Under the pieces are notes generated by a model. The model was not told the DNA's origin. It did no database searches and saw nothing but the letters and a program-made list of their open reading frames with translations. The translations under genes were made by a program, and so were the position numbers. Source: Patescibacteria group bacterium (GTDB lineage: Bacteria; Patescibacteriota; Patescibacteriia; UBA10025; JAHIVO01). Taken from it: a DNA stretch of 38,879 bases. Within the stretch, counting starts at the first letter, position 1. Each line of letters opens with the position of its first letter. This document shows positions 968 to 37,067 of the stretch, in pieces. Location: positions 1-38,879 of the forward strand of contig JAHIVO010000014.1 in assembly GCA_018816445.1 (NCBI GenBank), written 5' to 3'.

Positions 968-2920
968 ATGAGTAAGATTCTAGGAATTGACCTGGGTACA
1001 ACCAATTCAGCTATGGCCATTATTGAGGGCGGTGAACCCAAGGTATTGGAAAATAAAGAGGGTAACCGTACCACCCCTTCTATGGTGGCAATTTCCAAAA
1101 CAGGCGAACGCGTGGTTGGCCAGATTGCCAAGCGCCAGGCCGTGACTAATCCTGAAAATACAATTTTTTCCGTTAAGAGGTTAATCGGCCGCCGCTGGGG
1201 TGACGAAGAAGTACAGCGTGATGTAAAAACCATGTCGTATAAAATAGTCCAGGCGGGCGAAGGCATTAAAGTAAAAATGGACGGCAAAGAAAACACGCCG
1301 CAGGAAATTTCTGCCATGATTCTGCAGAAAATGAAAGCAGATGCCGAGGAAAAGCTGGGCGAAAAGATTGAAGAAGCGGTTATTACTGTACCGGCTTATT
1401 TTGACGATTCACAGCGCCAGGCTACCAAAGACGCCGGTGAAATTGCCGGCTTAAAAGTCAAGCGTATTATAAACGAACCGACGGCTGCAGCTTTGGCCTA
1501 TGGCTTTGAAAAGAAAAAGAACCAGCAGATTGCTGTTTATGACCTGGGCGGCGGTACTTTTGATATCTCCATTCTGGATGTAGCTACGGATACTGTTGAG
1601 GTTAAATCAACCAACGGCGATACCCATTTGGGCGGCGATGATTTTGACAAGCGGATTATTGACTGGCTGATTGACGAATTCAAGAAAGACCAGGGTATTG
1701 ACTTATCAAAAGACCAGATGGCTCTCCAGCGCCTGAAAGAAGCGGCTGAAAAAGCTAAAGTTGAATTATCAACTTCCCAGGAAACTGATATTAATCTGCC
1801 GTTTGTTACTTCAGATGCAAACGGCCCCAAACACATGAATTTGAAATTATCCAGGGCCAAACTTGAAGATTTGGTCGGCGATTTGATAGAAAAAACCATG
1901 GAGCCGGTTAACAAAGCGCTGGAAGATGCCAACCTGAAAACTTCTGAAATTGAAGAGGTTATTATGGTCGGCGGTATGACCCGTATGCCTAAGGTATTAG
2001 AAACAGTAGAAAAATTCTTTAATAAGAAACCAAACATTAGCGTTAATCCTGATGAAGTGGTAGCTATGGGCGCGGCTGTGCAAGCCGGCGTTTTGCAGGG
2101 TGATGTTAAAGATGTATTGCTATTGGATGTCACTCCGTTAACACTAGGCATTGAAACATTAGGCAGTGTGTCTACTCCGTTGATTGAAAAGAATACTACC
2201 ATCCCAACTTCCAAATCACAGATATTTTCAACTGCCGCTGATAACCAGACTACGGTTGAGATCCACGTACTGCAGGGTGAACGGCCAATGGCTGGGGATA
2301 ACAAGACTTTAGGCAAGTTCATGCTCTCCGGTATTCCACCGGCACCGCGCGGCGTACCTCAGGTTGAAGTATCATTTGATATTGACGCTAACGGAATTCT
2401 AAATGTAAAAGCTCAAGATAAAGCTACGGGCAAAGAACAATCAATTACCATTACTGCATCTTCGGGTTTATCCAAGGATGAAGTAGAAAAAATGAAGCAG
2501 GATGCTAAAGTGCATGAAGCTGAAGACCTGAAAAAGAAAGAAGTAATTGACATTCGCAATAATGCTGAGTCATTGGTCTTTACCGCAGAAAAGGCTCTGA
2601 AAGATGCTGGCAAAAAGGTTGATGATAAGACTAAAAAAGAAATTGAAGATAAGATCAAGGCAGTTAAAGACGTTAAAGATAAAGATGACGCTGAAGCTAT
2701 TAAAAAAGCAACAGAAGAATTGTCTCAAGCTATTCAGAAAATTGGCCAAGCTATGTATAAAGATCAAGGACAATCCGGAGCACAACCTGGTGCTGAAGGT
2801 AAGCCAGAAGATAAAGCTAAGGACGCAAAGGATAAAGGACCGGTAGATGCTGAATATGAGGATGTGAAGAAAGATGGGGATAAATCCGCCCAAGGCGGAT
2901 CCGCCTCGGGCGGAAAATAA
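968..2920 (+). CDS. dnaK: Molecular chaperone DnaK (Hsp70)
   Basis: [51 protein letters not shown]; DAEYEDV near the C-terminus. Confidence 0.99.
2885..2914. repeat. Tandem palindromic micro-insertion inside the dnaK 3' end (TCCGCC-NNN-GGCGGA x2)
   Basis: TCCGCC caa GGCGGA + TCCGCC tcg GGCGGA, flanked by AAAT (2882-2885 and 2915-2918); encodes [10 protein letters not shown] in frame. Confidence 0.8.
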
Positions 2921-2932
2921 CTTTTAAATAAA

Positions 2933-2971
2933 CCACAGGCCTCCCTTCGGGGGGTCTTGTGGGGTGTTTTT
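2933..2971 (+). terminator. Intrinsic terminator after dnaK
   Basis: CCACAGGCCTCCC-TTCG-GGGGGTCTTGTGG hairpin followed by GGTGTTTTT. Confidence 0.75.
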
Positions 2972-2980
2972 GATAAAAAT

Positions 2981-3144
2981 TGCGCCGCAATCGCAAATAC
3001 AACCCTAGGAGCAGCCCTCTGCGGCTGCGACTGGATATTAACCGGCGAGCACGGGCAGAGACCCGCCCGACTGCCTCCGGCATCGGAGGCGGGCGCGGCG
3101 CCCACGCTCGGAGTCGGGGAACGAGCAACGCAGAAGCAAGTACT
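2981..3144 (-). repeat. Structured repeat, copy 1 (carries a 37-nt hairpin insert at 3063-3099)
   Basis: Aligns by eye with 3631-3763; hairpins GCAGCC/GGCTGC and CGAGC..GGGC/GCCC..GCTCG, helix GACT/AGTC, closing helix 2981-2988/3125-3132. Confidence 0.85.
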
Positions 3145-3165
3145 ACAATAGGTAAATATAAAATT

Positions 3166-3648
3166 ATGATAAAAAAACACGCAGAAAAAATTAGTCAGGT
3201 GGAACTAGAGGAAAAAGCTATGCAGGCCGGTAATTCCTGGCACCATCATTGTTTACCAGTAAATTGTTTTACCAATGACACTGGTGAAGAAGTTATTGTT
3301 TTAGAAGCAGGAAATGATACTTTTTATTGTGAGACCACTAAAGAGCTGAAAAAAAAGCTGGAGGAGCACGCTTATCAATTAACTCACCCCCGAAAAGTAA
3401 AAGGCCGACATCCTAAGCACGAAGCCCTGGATAAAATTAAAGAATATGTTAAAGATGGTGTTAAGTGGCATTTTCATATCGCCATGCCGCACTGCCTGCT
3501 GAGCATGGGGGATAAATATGTGCTCATCCTTGAAAACGACGAAACGAAACAAATCCAGCAATGGGAATTTGATGAAAAACCGGTAGCGCTCGTGCGGGCA
3601 ATTGATGATAATTATTTGGGGAGAAAAAAAGTAGCACCGCCATTGTAA
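3166..3648 (+). CDS. Hypothetical protein with a duplicated WHxH-x4-C motif
   Basis: ATG at 3166 is in frame with track ORF 2980..3648; halves WHHHCLPVNC..VIVLE and WHFHIAMPHC..VLILE. Confidence 0.8.
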   Translation: MIKKHAEKISQVELEEKAMQAGNSWHHHCLPVNCFTNDTGEEVIVLEAGNDTFYCETTKELKKKLEEHAYQLTHPRKVKGRHPKHEALDKIKEYVKDGVKWHFHIAMPHCLLSMGDKYVLILENDETKQIQQWEFDEKPVALVRAIDDNYLGRKKVAPPL

Positions 3649-3763
3649 ATACCACTACAGGAGCAGGCCTCTGTGCCTGCGACTGAGTATTAACCAGGCG
3701 AGCGCGGGCAGAGACGCCCACGCTCGGAATCGGGGAATAGGCGGCGCGGAAATAGATTGTACT
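3631..3763 (-). repeat. Structured repeat, copy 2 (overlaps the last codons and stop of 3166..3648)
   Basis: GCAGGC-CTCTGT-GCCTGC, CGAGCG-C-GGGC-AGAGAC-GCCC-A-CGCTCG, closing helix 3634-3641/3740-3747. Confidence 0.85.
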
Positions 3764-3770
3764 TAAAAAT

Positions 3771-3807
3771 AAGAAAAACCCTAACTACTGGGAGATAGCT
3801 AGGGTTT
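3771..3807 (-). terminator. Intrinsic terminator of ORF 3831..4112
   Basis: Minus strand AAACCCTAGCTA-loop-TAGTTAGGGTTT followed by TTCTT. Confidence 0.7.
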
Positions 3808-3830
3808 CAAAGGTAGGTACGCATTTGGGA

Positions 3831-4112
3831 TTAGTCCTCCGGCAGTTTAAGCGCTTTTTTCATCGGGGCCATCTCTGGTCCACGTACCAGAATTAGTGTT
3901 TGCCCTCCAGCCTCTAGTTTGGTGATTCTGGCAACTTCGTCTGCTCTTGAAAGGATTACTTTACCCTCATTAACATCACTTGATGTAATAACTACAGATC
4001 CTTCTTCAGTTTGAAGAACAATAGAGCCGTCTTCAGTACCCTGACTCCAGGTAGCGAAATTTAGACCACTGATAGCCGGCAGATCGGCAACCGGAATTTT
4101 CTTTTCAATCAT
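3831..4112 (-). CDS. Orphan hypothetical protein (93 aa)
   Basis: SD AGGAGGG (4119-4125), own promoter and terminator; no recognisable motif. Confidence 0.7.
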   Translation of the reverse strand: MIEKKIPVADLPAISGLNFATWSQGTEDGSIVLQTEEGSVVITSSDVNEGKVILSRADEVARITKLEAGGQTLILVRGPEMAPMKKALKLPED

Positions 4113-7110: not shown

Positions 7111-7722
7111 ATGTTTCCAGTTGCATTAGCCGCTGAAACTGCAGAGGCAGCGGCTGAATCAGCAAATTTTTTACAGCATGTTGACTGGACCAGGCCTACC
7201 TGGGATCTTTTTATAGTTTTATTTTTTATCGTTGCTGCGTTTTTATACGGCTTATCATTAGGCAGGGACAGGATAATTATAATTTTGGTCAGCATTTACA
7301 TGTCGCTGGCCATTGTTGAACATGCACCAATCGTAAATAATGAGGGCTTTCAGAACATGATAAATAATATCGCTGGCCAGTTTTTTGTGTTCCAGATTTC
7401 TGCTTTTTTAGTCTTGTTTGTTGTATTCTTTTTTATAATTACACGCAGTGCGCTTGTTAAAACCATAGCCTCTTCAGATTTACCTGGCCCTTGGTGGCAG
7501 GTGCTGCTGTACAGTATTTTACACGTTGGTTTGATTGTCAGCATTGTTTTATCATACATACCAAAAGAATCAGTTGAGGGCGTGCTGGCCCCGTTAACCC
7601 AGCGCGTATTTACCACTGATTTTGCCCAGAACGTTTGGATTATAGGTCCGCTCCTGGCTATGTTTATATTTAAGGGTGGCGCTTCACAGAAAAAGACGCG
7701 TAAGGTAATAGAGGAGGAGTAA
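7111..7722 (+). CDS. Membrane protein, possibly CvpA-like
   Basis: About 5 TM helices; DLFIVLFF...YGLSLG resembles the CvpA start; upstream TG-C-TATACT extended -10. Confidence 0.6.
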   Translation: MFPVALAAETAEAAAESANFLQHVDWTRPTWDLFIVLFFIVAAFLYGLSLGRDRIIIILVSIYMSLAIVEHAPIVNNEGFQNMINNIAGQFFVFQISAFLVLFVVFFFIITRSALVKTIASSDLPGPWWQVLLYSILHVGLIVSIVLSYIPKESVEGVLAPLTQRVFTTDFAQNVWIIGPLLAMFIFKGGASQKKTRKVIEEE

Positions 7723-7724
7723 AT

Positions 7725-7815
7725 TAGTTAATAGTCAATAGTTTATAGTATATAGTTAACAGGAACAGGCCTCTGCGTCTGCCCCGTAGTACGGGGCCTG
7801 CGACTAAGTTTTTTT
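7725..7815 (+). repeat. Composite element: 5x TAGTNWA heptamers + truncated structured-repeat hairpin + CCCCGTAGTACGGGG insert + T7
   Basis: Closely similar to 36984-37067; core AGGAxCAGGxCTCTG...CCTGCGACT shared with the repeats at ~3008 and ~3659. Confidence 0.85.
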
Positions 7816-24695: not shown

Positions 24696-24766
24696 TGCGG
24701 GATCGTCTAATGGTAGGACCGCGGATTCTGGATCCGCTAATCCAGGTTCGAATCCTGGTCCCGCAG
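24696..24766 (+). tRNA. tRNA-Gln (anticodon CTG)
   Basis: Acceptor TGCGGGA/TCCCGCA, anticodon arm GCGGA-TTCTGGA-TCCGC, T arm CCAGG-TTCGAAT-CCTGG; CCA not encoded. Confidence 0.95.
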
Positions 24767-34453: not shown

Positions 34454-35455
34454 ATGCCTAAAAAAACTCAAATACCACGCGCGGAATTACATGCCCATTT
34501 GGGCGGTTCAGTGGATCCGGCTATTTTGTGGTCTATTGCTCACCGTCACGGCATTAAACTGCCCAGCAAGGACTACTGGGATTTTGAGGATATGATTACC
34601 ATGACTGGCACGGAAACAAATCAGTCCCTGGATGATATGCATAATAATTTTTATTACTGGACTGAGTTAATCCAGTCATCGCCTGATACTATTGAAGAAT
34701 CAATTCGCAGTGTTATAGGGGGTGGCTACCGCAAGTGTAATTTAGTATTACAAGAGTTGCGCTATAATCCTATGTTTAGAAACCGCAGCGGTGAAAAAGA
34801 CTTGGATCATATAATTGTTGCTTCATTATGGGGATTAGACAGGGCTATGCTGGAATATCCTCAGGTAAAGGCTGGCATAATCCTAATGCTGGACAGGACC
34901 CTGACTTACAATCAAAATGCCATAATAGTTGAAAAAGCTATTCGTTATAAACCCAGTGGGATTGTAGGCATTGACCTGGCCGGTCCGCAGAGAAAATCAT
35001 TTTCCATAAAAAAACACTCCTCCCTTTTCAAGATGGCGCGCCACGCTGGTTTAGGTATAACCATCCATAGTGGGGAAGAAGGTAAGATCGATGAATTGCG
35101 CTACGTAGTCAACCACATTAAACCAGAACGCATTGGCCATGGGTTTTTATGTTATAAGGATAAGCAATTAATGAAGGATATTGTAAAAAATAATGCTACT
35201 CTGGAAATTTGTCCAACTTCAAACTTAAGGAATAATGTAATTAAGAATAAAGCTGAATTAAAAAAGATCATCCGTACTTTAATGATCAATAAGGTTAAGT
35301 TTACTATAAATACTGATGGCCCGGAAATGTACTGTACTAATTTATATGAAGAGCAGGAATTATTAAGAAAAGCGGGCATTTTAATCCAAGCTGATATCAA
35401 TCGGTGCACCAAATGGGCTTTTGAAGCATCCTTTGTTAAACAGGATAGAGTATGA
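34454..35455 (+). CDS. Adenosine/AMP deaminase family protein
   Basis: ELHAHLGGS, GIDLAG, HSGE, RIGHG, EICPTSN, NTDGP. Confidence 0.9.
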   Translation: MPKKTQIPRAELHAHLGGSVDPAILWSIAHRHGIKLPSKDYWDFEDMITMTGTETNQSLDDMHNNFYYWTELIQSSPDTIEESIRSVIGGGYRKCNLVLQELRYNPMFRNRSGEKDLDHIIVASLWGLDRAMLEYPQVKAGIILMLDRTLTYNQNAIIVEKAIRYKPSGIVGIDLAGPQRKSFSIKKHSSLFKMARHAGLGITIHSGEEGKIDELRYVVNHIKPERIGHGFLCYKDKQLMKDIVKNNATLEICPTSNLRNNVIKNKAELKKIIRTLMINKVKFTINTDGPEMYCTNLYEEQELLRKAGILIQADINRCTKWAFEASFVKQDRV

Positions 35456-36981
35456 AGGATATAATCTACGTCCTTGATTTTGGTTCTCAATATTCACATT
35501 TAATTACCCGGCGCATCAGAGAGTTGGGTATTTTTGCCGAGCTAGTTCCGGTTAATTACCCGATTAATAAATTAACGCAGGCTAAGGGTATAATTTTATC
35601 CGGGGGGCCGCGTGATATTTCTAAAAAAGACACTCTACTGGTTGGCAGGGGCCTTTTTAGTTTAGGCGTACCTATTTTAGGCATTTGCTATGGTATGCAG
35701 TTAATGGCGCACATGTTCGGCGGCAAGGTGGCCTTAGGTAAAAAACGTGAGTATGGACCGGTTGAGATTAAAATATTAAAAAGGGGCCATTTGCTTGCTG
35801 GCCTGAAAACAAAACAGCAGACCTGGATGTCGCATCGCGACCAGGTTGTGAAACTGCCCAGAGGTTTTTCAGTGCTGGCTAGCTCAAAAAACTGCCGTTA
35901 TAGCGCCATTGCCAATGAGAAAATTGGCATTTATGGCTTGCAGTTTCATCCAGAAGTGGTGCATACAGTAAATGGCATGAAAATATTAAAAAACTTCGTT
36001 AACTTAACTCAGGCTAAGTGCTCTTGGTCTATGCGAGATTTTGTTGATAATGCTATTAAAGATATTAAACAAAAAGTTGGCCAGGAAAAGGTGGTTTGCG
36101 CCTTATCCGGGGGAGTGGATTCATCCGTGGCCGCTACGATTGTTAATAAAGCTATTGGCCGGCAATTAACCTGCATCTATGTTGATACTGGATTGATGCG
36201 CCAGGGAGAAACTGAGCAGGTTAAAAAAACATTTCTATCATACCAGCGAGCTAATCTAAAAGTGATTAATGCCAAAAAGCAATTCCTAGAAGAGTTAAAG
36301 AATGTAACTGATCCGGAAAAAAAGCGAAAGATTATTGGAAATTTATTTATCAGAATTTTTGAAAAAGAAGCCAAGAAAATTGGCGGGGTAAAATGGCTAG
36401 TCCAAGGAACCCTATATACAGACGCCATTACTTCTGGCGTGAGCGTGGGTAAAACCGCCGCAGTAATAAAATCCCACCACAATGTGGGCGGCCTGCCAAA
36501 AAAATTCGGTTTTAAATTAATTGAGCCTTTCAGGGGATTATATAAAGATGAAGTGCGTAAAGTCGGCCGCTTATTAGGGTTGCCCAAAGAAGTAACAGAG
36601 CGACAGCCGTTTCCCGGTCCGGGTTTAGCCGTGCGCATTATCGGCGAGGTAACAGAGGAGAGGCTGGATATTGTGCGCCAAGCAGACTGGATTGCCAGGG
36701 AGGAGATTGAAAAAGCGAGCTGGGCGAATAAAGCACAGCAGTACTTTACAGTTTTGCCGAGCATCAGGTCGGTTGGTGTGCAGGGTGACTCGCGTACTTA
36801 TGGTTATCCGATTATTGTCCGCGCGGTAACTACCAGAGATTTTATGACAGCAGACTGGGCGCGCTTGCCGCATAATTTATTAGCTACCATTTCAGCCAGG
36901 ATAACCAATGAAGTAAAAGAAGTTAACAGGGTAATTTATGACATTACTTCCAAGCCGCCGGGGACAGTTGAGTGGGAGTAG
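35452..36981 (+). CDS. guaA: GMP synthase (glutamine-hydrolysing)
   Basis: LDFGSQY, GICYGMQ, QFHPEV, SGGVDS, IKSHHNVGGLP, PFPGPGL, KPPGTVEWE. Confidence 0.98.
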   Translation: MKDIIYVLDFGSQYSHLITRRIRELGIFAELVPVNYPINKLTQAKGIILSGGPRDISKKDTLLVGRGLFSLGVPILGICYGMQLMAHMFGGKVALGKKREYGPVEIKILKRGHLLAGLKTKQQTWMSHRDQVVKLPRGFSVLASSKNCRYSAIANEKIGIYGLQFHPEVVHTVNGMKILKNFVNLTQAKCSWSMRDFVDNAIKDIKQKVGQEKVVCALSGGVDSSVAATIVNKAIGRQLTCIYVDTGLMRQGETEQVKKTFLSYQRANLKVINAKKQFLEELKNVTDPEKKRKIIGNLFIRIFEKEAKKIGGVKWLVQGTLYTDAITSGVSVGKTAAVIKSHHNVGGLPKKFGFKLIEPFRGLYKDEVRKVGRLLGLPKEVTERQPFPGPGLAVRIIGEVTEERLDIVRQADWIAREEIEKASWANKAQQYFTVLPSIRSVGVQGDSRTYGYPIIVRAVTTRDFMTADWARLPHNLLATISARITNEVKEVNRVIYDITSKPPGTVEWE

Positions 36982-36983
36982 GT

Positions 36984-37067
36984 TGGTTTATAGTAAATAG
37001 TTTATGGTTTATAGGAGCAGGTCTCTGTGCCTGCCCCGTAGTACGGGGCCTGCGACTAGTTTTTTTT
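36984..37067 (+). repeat. Composite element: 4x TRGTWWA heptamers + truncated structured-repeat hairpin + CCCCGTAGTACGGGG insert + T8
   Basis: Second copy of 7725-7815; insert 37034-37048 flanked by a CCTG direct repeat. Confidence 0.85.

Follow-up and report, generated by a model that had tools for sequence, protein, structure and literature searches.

The contig JAHIVO010000014.1 of a Patescibacteria group bacterium, 38,879 nucleotides long and analysed over its whole length (the window; contig C16 of the assembly), carries close to its start a gene set between two direct copies of a structured repeat of ~130 nt. Along the plus strand, dnaK is followed by a terminator-like hairpin, by the first copy of the repeat, by an open reading frame (ORF) for a 160-residue protein (ORF160) and by the second copy, inside which ORF160 ends; a convergent gene for a 93-residue protein faces the group from the far side (Table 1). 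An earlier note on this DNA had proposed that the repeats delimit a gene cassette of a novel system. We argue here that they are probably members of an old and sparse family of hairpins resembling repetitive extragenic palindromes (REPs), substrates now or formerly of REP-associated tyrosine transposases (RAYTs), and that two of them have come to flank a conserved gene. The source genome (G000), that of a Kerfeldbacteria-like bacterium from groundwater, is a 1.34-Mb assembly in 97 contigs, 92% complete, and most of the cross-genome counts given below refer to 22 genomes of one order.

The two copies can be aligned from end to end at a mean column identity of 79%, and copy 2, as a BLAST query against the whole genome, retrieves copy 1 at E 5.5e-17, which excludes a chance resemblance; the homology that the earlier note had seen is thus secure, and the ORF list and the sequence bear out its placing of the copies around ORF160, with the end of the gene in copy 2. 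Both copies are islands of GC (0.57-0.66 for copy 1 and 0.51-0.54 for copy 2, in 150-nt windows) in flanks of about 0.35-0.45. Significance of folding was judged against shuffled sequences. Copy 2 folds at -54.4 kcal/mol on the plus strand (z -3.84) and at -57.8 kcal/mol on the minus strand (z -4.56), with none of 200 shuffles equally stable on either; the values for copy 1 are -73.7 (z -2.98) and -79.3 kcal/mol (z -2.39), respectively.

The core of the repeat is a pair of hairpins, A on the left and B on the right (the doublet), with stems of 6-11 bp and loops of 6-8 nt. The CTCTG-type loop of hairpin A and the CAGAG-type loop of hairpin B are reverse complements of each other, and in another genome of the order (G019) the left hairpin is plainly the reverse-complement type of the right one; the core therefore consists of two related palindromes, one inverted with respect to the other, with 10-15 AT-rich nt between them. 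In G000 the pair is enclosed by a terminal GC helix, which brings the unit to ~125 nt. The compensatory swap in the stem of hairpin A (GCAGCC/GGCTGC as against GCAGGC/GCCTGC), hairpin B with its AGAGAC loop and the closing helix are all present as first described. The additional GACT/ARTC helix attributed to copies 1 and 2 has fared less well: only two of the five full copies of the repeat in this genome have it and it is absent from the consensus. RNAalifold, applied to an alignment of the five, keeps three helices on either strand, namely the closing helix and hairpins A and B. The Rfam scan that the earlier note had asked for finds nothing on repeats in the window that reaches a gathering score (the one match in the window to do so is a tRNA, at 24696-24766), a more permissive search over 2850-3900 (E<=10) yields sub-threshold noise on the neighbouring terminator only, and no family matches at the three other full copies. 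Two further candidates were considered and set aside. The CIRCE heat-shock operator came to mind since dnaK adjoins, and its consensus has no match in the window with up to three mismatches allowed; a diversity-generating retroelement, with template and variable repeats, is not what the copies resemble by eye, their differences extending beyond adenines.

Generic hairpin scans of the genome were too noisy for a census and covariance models were used instead, together with BLAST and nhmmer searches for repeat copies. The first model, R1, was built from the five full copies of G000 and comprises hairpin A, hairpin B and the closing helix; the second, R2, represents a single hairpin, and in most genomes no more than 150 candidates per genome were scored with it. 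The five full copies score 108.7-139.6 bits with R1, and fragments accompany them. (The element being a quasi-palindrome, R1 matches the opposite strands of full copies as well, at 25-58 bits.) No two full copies are more alike than copies 1 and 2, with 76% identity as against 50-71% for the other pairs, and this close kinship suggests local copying.

The doublet is not confined to G000. R1 matches it in 13 of the 22 genomes at E<=0.1, and the best matches outside G000 (97, 78 and 72 bits) come from three other genera. Its layout is constant across genomes (a hairpin with a CTCTG loop, 10-15 nt, a hairpin with a CAGAG loop) while the stem sequences differ. Covariation, which the earlier note had wanted looked for along with further copies and which was likewise found, was followed in an alignment of 20 right-hand hairpins from 13 genomes: standard pairs occupy 88.6% of the cells of hairpin B, compared with 28-49% once the 3' partners have been shifted out of register by one to three columns, and 29 cells show double changes, a number that none of 500 shuffles reaches (mean 10.2), kinship of the sequences inflating the shuffle control and leaving the shifted-partner control unaffected. 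With R2, at least one match at E<=0.01 is found in 18 of the 22 genomes. A class-level sample, scanned with stricter filters than the order, has matches at E<=1e-4 in 11 of 121 genomes, or in nine of 119 when G000 and G018 are set aside. A simple pattern for hairpin A retrieves nothing among species-representative genomes and a single contig among metagenome contigs, at the same locus as contig C59 of G000. Judged by its sequences, the hairpin family is old, patchy in distribution and low in copy number.

Transposases that could read such hairpins are encoded in the same genome. G000 has eight matches to the Y1/HUH transposase family PF01797, seven of them at E<=0.001, in ORFs of 174-210 residues. 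Four of these proteins were scanned against the NCBIfam model for REP-associated tyrosine transposases, NF047646 (cut-off 80 bits), and scored 106.3, 104.1, 78.3 and 58.3 bits, two of them above the cut-off and all four with NF047646 well ahead of the IS200 model. The likeness to REPs and to IS200/IS605 ends, for which the earlier note had argued, survives on this evidence, and its statement that the window holds neither an integrase nor a Y1/HUH gene is correct for the window, the Y1/HUH genes of this genome being elsewhere. Across the order PF01797 is present in 15 of the 22 genomes. Doublet and Y1 gene occur together in 12, the doublet alone in one, a Y1 gene alone in three and neither in six (Fisher p 0.007), and the count of R2 hairpins rises with the count of Y1 genes (Spearman rho 0.76 over the 22), both figures being inflated, since the genomes are related and some of the counted hairpins lie inside Y1 genes. 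The only genome with the doublet alone, G004, has a weak match (E 0.03).

The position of some of those hairpins is more telling than their number. In 12 Y1 genes from eight genomes (three in G000, two each in G007 and G019, one each in G010, G011, G013, G018 and G021) the Pfam match extends no further than the HUH motif, and R2 hairpins lie within about 160 nt beyond it. Five of the 12 ORFs were read whole: all are intact genes whose N-terminus reads MTQRRIY..., whose HUH motif is MPDHxH and whose C-terminal part has Y...NP, and translation runs in frame through the doublet, which separates the two halves of the gene. The hairpin DNA is conserved in these five and the 25-45 residues that it encodes are not. 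Literature searches on REPs within RAYT genes gave nothing relevant, with the proviso that the supplementary lists of PMC3733652 may already record such cases. A different arrangement is seen at two further RAYT-type genes of G000, C7:3435-3701 (L028) and C88:5658-5984 (L032), each of which lies between direct copies of its own, different two-hairpin element; the layout, a gene between direct hairpin repeats, is like that of the ORF160 locus.

Several copies of the repeat abut stop codons. Five elements stand between co-directional genes (copy 1, the full copies in C59 and C45, and two hairpin-A derivatives at 7758 and 37010 in the window), and all five are in gene sense; copy 2 and the elements in C77 and C47 lie between convergent or divergent genes, where orientation is uninformative. 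The C59 copy starts at the stop codon of pheS, and stop codons are likewise abutted in C47 and, for ORF160, in G000, G019 and G021. The two derivatives resemble intrinsic terminators built out of the repeat. GC skew is positive throughout the window. Insertion of IS200/IS605 elements into single strands at the replication fork gives a strand-biased orientation, so that the bias would fit read-through transcription of the plus strand and also replication-fork insertion. From their places directly behind stop codons or terminators, in gene sense, it is probable that the copies also appear in 3' or intergenic transcripts, where they may serve as stabilising or terminating hairpins.

Which strand folds is a separate matter. 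The earlier note had remarked that the helix mismatches of copies 1 and 2 all become G-U pairs on the minus strand. They are indeed C-A or A-C on the plus strand, and the minus strand is lower in energy by 3.4-5.6 kcal/mol; right-hand hairpins across genomes, of the hairpin B type, continue the tendency, with 7 A-C against 1 G-T on the plus strand. The generalization does not extend to the closing helix and hairpin A of the other three full copies, which have G-U pairs on the plus strand, and left-hand hairpins across genomes show 2 G-T against 1 A-C on that strand (small numbers). An opposite wobble bias of left and right hairpins, small as the numbers are, is the pattern expected of a single polar hairpin present in two inverted copies. 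Folding z-scores are alike on the two strands. G-T wobbles are tolerated in folded DNA too, and the minus-strand wobble bias therefore does not prove an RNA.

ORF160 itself is present as a single copy in each of 15 of the 22 genomes, at 46-72% identity, and at 16 loci in species-representative genomes, in records labelled Candidatus Kerfeldbacteria, Patescibacteria group, Parcubacteria group and, in several cases, uncultured Gammaproteobacteria; G000 contains no paralogue above chance level at E<=10. Its presence does not track that of the doublet (both in 10 genomes, ORF160 alone in five, doublet alone in three, neither in four). dnaK lies upstream of it in G003, G006 and G021, and ORF160 adjoins dnaK in a genome of a second family too. 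At two loci assigned to Candidatus Kerfeldbacteria, L067 and L069 (69% and 67% identical), ORF160 comes directly after dnaK and a terminator hairpin, and repeats are absent from both sides. These two loci are, by their sequences, empty sites in other genera, and they speak for a secondary insertion of the repeats at this locus; ORF160 is a conserved, lineage-specific single-copy gene that lies outside any mobile unit. G003 (L011) and G018 (L024) have a conserved 161-residue gene between dnaK and ORF160; tblastn of G000 finds no match to it, and copy 1 fills that interval in G000.

The overlap of ORF160 with copy 2, which the earlier note had likened to the way attC sites cover the stop codons of integron cassettes, has a simpler origin. 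The protein ends at 152-155 residues in all 14 relatives from the order, with ...IDDYYLGRKK or a near variant (...LG/LK/LE-R-x-x), and ORF160 of G000 has five extra codons (VAPPL) that are read into copy 2. Where the nearest relative has AGG AAA AAG TAG, G000 has AGA AAA AAA GTA GCA CCG CCA TTG TAA: the A run is one base longer, and for that reason the TAG at 3632-3634 is out of frame. The overlap is therefore a frameshift extension into a repeat placed immediately behind the original stop. Contigs from X2 and X3 have the identical sequence at the end of ORF160.

The confidently predicted structure of the protein (pLDDT 86.2, pTM 0.78) has two alpha-beta3-alpha modules. Each opens with an invariant W-H-x-H followed by a conserved Cys (WHHHC...C in one, WHFH...P.C in the other), and 40 columns are invariant among 15 sequences. 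Pfam and NCBIfam have no match to it, Foldseek against the PDB gives nothing at E<=0.001 (its weak rows are tandem double-stranded-RNA-binding domains, at E about 0.005-0.1, and glyoxalase-type modules), a wide structure search gives SRP9/SRP14 at Z 6.5-6.3, values too low to mean more than a shared arrangement, and a protein atlas search has no usable match. ORF160 may bind metal or nucleic acid, weak as these fold matches are.

Table 1. Positions of the repeats, their parts and neighbouring features. Positions without a contig prefix are those of the window; the others are given by contig of G000.
Feature	Position	Strand	Basis or remark
dnaK, upstream neighbour	968-2920	+	ORF list
Terminator-like hairpin of dnaK with T run, just ahead of copy 1	2933-2971	+	Read from sequence; not listed by simple terminator scan
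Repeat copy 1	2975-3150	+	Alignment; R1 109.4 bits; folds
Copy 1, closing helix arms	about 2982-2988 and 3125-3131	+	
Copy 1, hairpin A	3011-3028	+	
Copy 1, hairpin B arms	3047-3056 and 3100-3109	+	
37-nt hairpin inside the hairpin B loop, copy 1 only	3063-3099	+	Alignment gap; member of second repeat family
ORF160 (160 residues), between the copies, ending inside copy 2	3166-3648	+	ORF list
A run (seven A), then GTAG	3624-3634	+	Likely ancestral stop: TAG at 3632-3634, now out of frame by one base
Repeat copy 2	3627-3766	+	Alignment; R1 139.6 bits; R2 42 bits at 3694-3733; folds
Copy 2, closing helix arms	3634-3641 and 3740-3747	+	
Copy 2, hairpin A	3663-3680	+	
Copy 2, hairpin B	3700-3725	+	
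Terminator of convergent 93-residue gene (3831-4112), just past copy 2	3775-3808	-	Terminator scan
Hairpin-A derivative with extra nested CCCCGTAGTACGGGG hairpin and T run	7758-7810	+	nhmmer match at 7758-7783; directly after stop of gene 7111-7722
Second hairpin-A derivative with extra nested CCCCGTAGTACGGGG hairpin and T run	37010-37060	+	Match at 37010-37037; directly after stop of gene 35452-36981
Full copy	C77:31475-31598	-	
Full copy	C59:14882-15005		
Full copy	C45:4342-4468		
Hairpin A alone	C47:1954-1991		
Hairpin A alone	C59:34768		
Hairpin B alone	C48:7435-7462		
Y1 genes of G000 with doublet after HUH motif	C48:7465-7620, C55:2192-2350, C29:4299-4367		
Second repeat family, separate copies	C40:2472-2509, C42:11278-11315, C42:12230-12275		

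REPs, as PMC3733652 and PMC5581495 describe them, are palindromes of 20-40 bp with a GTAG or CGTC tag, arranged mostly as head-to-head dimers and lying mostly downstream of genes, sometimes within them. Family size varies between thousands of units and fewer than 20-100, and RAYT genes, which are typically single-copy, are flanked by REPs or by terminal inverted repeats (PMC3733652, PMC5581495). The repeats described here share a good deal with these systems, including the REP doublets known as REPINs and the bacterial interspersed mosaic elements (BIMEs) of enterobacteria: they are short, GC-rich, imperfect palindromes, in inverted pairs with a short spacer, mostly extragenic and just behind genes, with stems kept by compensatory change, with RAYT-type Y1 genes that co-vary with them in number and with other small repeats nested in them in mosaic fashion. 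They are palindromes, they form inverted dimers and they occur with RAYTs, as REPs and REPINs do. They differ in having no GTAG/CGTC tag; in their ~10 loci per genome, at the low end of the REP family sizes that PMC3733652 gives; in copies that are 50-76% identical rather than nearly so; in the presence of several RAYT-type genes per genome rather than one; and in lying within the reading frame of one RAYT subfamily rather than flanking the gene, all this in a bacterium of the candidate phyla radiation (CPR). Because the tag and the flanking of RAYT genes are lacking and the copy number is low-end, we do not file the family as a plain member of the REPs.

With these reservations, the account that best accommodates the family, its structure and covariation, its spread over the order, its co-occurrence with Y1 genes and its position beside the HUH motif of one Y1 subfamily is that of a low-copy, old and diverged REP/REPIN- or BIME-like family of RAYT-type Y1 substrates, present or past, with a secondary role as RNA possible; we hold this to be probable, with appreciable room for doubt. 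REP-associated tyrosine (Y1/HUH) transposases, whose genes lie elsewhere in the genome, would recognise the hairpins, or would once have done so, as single-stranded DNA in folded form, and would have spread them. One copy would have landed between the dnaK terminator and ORF160, and a second, its closest relative, right behind the ORF160 stop, by local copying or by a second insertion; a later gain of one base in the poly-A run would then have made ORF160 read five codons into copy 2.

Several observations weigh against this account. The copy number is low (0-38 R2 matches per genome across the order, and 14 single hairpins at ~10 loci in G000), the co-occurrence with Y1 genes is inflated in the manner already stated, and the divergence of the full copies (50-76% pairwise identity) comes with nothing that shows recent movement. 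The tag of the catalogued REP superfamilies is missing, the hairpins being flanked by GAGC/GCGA-type bases instead and GTAG standing ahead of the closing helix in only two of the five full copies. None of the G000 Y1 genes whose flanks were read is flanked by hairpins of the family; three contain them. Contigs from X2 and X3 have the identical arrangement at the ORF160 locus and no empty-site variant appears in the three samples. (A joint of 2917 to 3658 in X1, with a shorter side of 26 letters and 85% likeness, is typical of repeats or of other organisms and was given no weight; a protein scan of the metagenome contigs found no close relative for an empty-site comparison.) Moreover, family hairpins adjoin ORF160 in at least four other genomes: they lie upstream of it in G002 and G018 (46.3 bits, among the best in the order), abut its stop codon in G019 and G021, and have left, to the eye, a decayed remnant downstream of it in G003. 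These four genomes have 15-38 R2 matches in 1.1-1.3 Mb, which puts the adjacency to ORF160 above chance expectation. Such recurrence could point to a host function at the locus; it may also reflect one old insertion or a preferred target.

A host function is the substance of the explanation that the hairpins are mainly structures of host RNA, sense-strand hairpins in 3' untranslated or intergenic regions that terminate transcription or guard the ends of mRNAs, their connection with Y1 genes being incidental or historical. Much of the foregoing is what it would lead one to expect: the uniform gene-sense orientation of all five informative copies, the copies that abut stop codons, the two window derivatives with T runs directly after genes, stems kept by compensatory change through 24-50% divergence, and the recurrence beside ORF160 in several genera; many REPs, moreover, are plausibly transcribed and act as RNA, according to PMC3733652. 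It offers no account, however, of the hairpins just behind the HUH motif in 12 Y1 genes of eight genomes, or of hairpin and Y1 counts that rise together; the wobble bias of hairpin B favours, by 7 to 1, the strand antisense to the mRNA, the composite copies themselves lack a T run, and the orientation bias is expected from replication-coupled single-strand transposition as well. We consider it unlikely as the whole explanation, though it deserves to be kept in view, and it does not exclude a REP-like origin, the two not being mutually exclusive. An RNA made from the minus strand, an antisense small RNA or other non-coding RNA of the kind that the earlier note had entertained, is a good deal harder to credit and we take it to be quite improbable. 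The wobble pattern and the lower minus-strand energy of copies 1 and 2, together with the bias of hairpin B across genomes, speak for it; a simple promoter scan of the minus strand shows nothing promoter-like next to copy 1 or copy 2, Rfam has no match, the other full copies put their G-U pairs in the closing helix and hairpin A on the plus strand, the z-scores do not separate the strands, G-T pairs would serve folded DNA as well, and every informative copy is in gene sense.

The idea of a mobile unit that ends in the two direct copies and has ORF160 as cargo, whether an integron-like cassette or an IS200/IS605-like passenger moved in trans, owes its attraction to the layout. IS200/IS605 ends are subterminal direct hairpins on one strand, either side of a gene, read as folded single strands by Y1/HUH enzymes, and passenger-carrying derivatives, the PATE-type elements, are known; the bracketed RAYT genes of C7 and C88 and a 222-residue ORF in C42, each between direct copies of other hairpin repeats, are built on similar lines. 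ORF160, in contrast, is neither a transposase nor TnpB (PF07282, none of which was found in the 92% complete G000), and it shows no sign of moving: single-copy in G000 and in every one of the 15 genomes that have it, it adjoins dnaK in repeat-free relatives and in the genome of a second family, no other gene was found between copies of the repeat, and there is no polymorphism over the three samples. The resemblance to attC sites (imperfect palindromes, strand-specific in their folding, that stand at the 3' end of a gene and in some cases cover its stop codon) is offset in the same way by fixed gene content and position, by the absence of an array or of an integrase beside the repeats, and by the frameshift that explains the overlap; the three tyrosine recombinase genes of the genome (matches on C95, C25, C84 and C21) are on other contigs, away from all repeat copies. 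Fixed synteny had been named beforehand in the earlier note as the observation that would speak against a cassette, and it is what L067 and L069 display; it largely refutes the mobile unit, which we now think very improbable indeed. Rickettsia palindromic elements and intragenic REPs offer another parallel, in-frame insertion with a gain of 20-30 residues, as in the Y1 genes and at the C-terminus of dnaK; copies 1 and 2 differ from them in being intergenic apart from the five read-through codons.

The family is not the only one of its kind in G000. A second family of ~40-75 nt, with a GCCTTCGGCATCGAAGGC-type hairpin, has one copy nested in copy 1. Two of its separate copies bracket the 222-residue ORF of C42, which is rich in repeats (L026:1402-2070), and another, in C40, lies about 80 nt from the transfer-messenger RNA (tmRNA) gene. 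A third family, TCCGCC-NNN-GGCGGA, often occurs as a tandem pair and has 19 motif matches in G000; two of its short hairpins stand in tandem and in frame at 2885-2914, within the last 13 codons of dnaK, and about 14 other loci of the genome have it. Depth of metagenome contigs over 2885-2914 is about 14 times that of the flanks in run X1, which suggests that the motif is common in that community.

If the REP-like account is right, one can go a step further and suppose that the doublet is the cognate substrate of one CPR Y1 subfamily that keeps a copy of it, in frame, behind the HUH motif: a self-embedded REPIN. We put this forward as a speculation, and a doubtful one. Were it true, the direct copies that bracket ORF160, the 222-residue ORF of C42 and two RAYT genes could be excisable units, and hairpins beside ORF160 in several genera would be a matter of function rather than accident; it would also be a REP-RAYT layout for which the literature searches gave no description.

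The locus itself is a fairly ordinary one, palindromic repeats on either side of a housekeeping-type gene, and no new cassette system is needed to account for it. Its interest lies in the company that the repeats keep. Search listings gave nothing relevant on RAYTs in Patescibacteria or the CPR, nor on palindromic repeats or transposases in Kerfeldbacteria; REP/RAYT-type systems thus seem to be undescribed in Patescibacteria, in whose genomes of 1-1.6 Mb up to seven RAYT-type genes and several palindromic families are found together. A tagless family that persists at very low copy number while its stems evolve by compensatory change bears on the question of how such elements survive, and a doublet inside the reading frame of one RAYT subfamily, in at least eight genomes, provides a handle on how RAYTs and their repeats stay linked.

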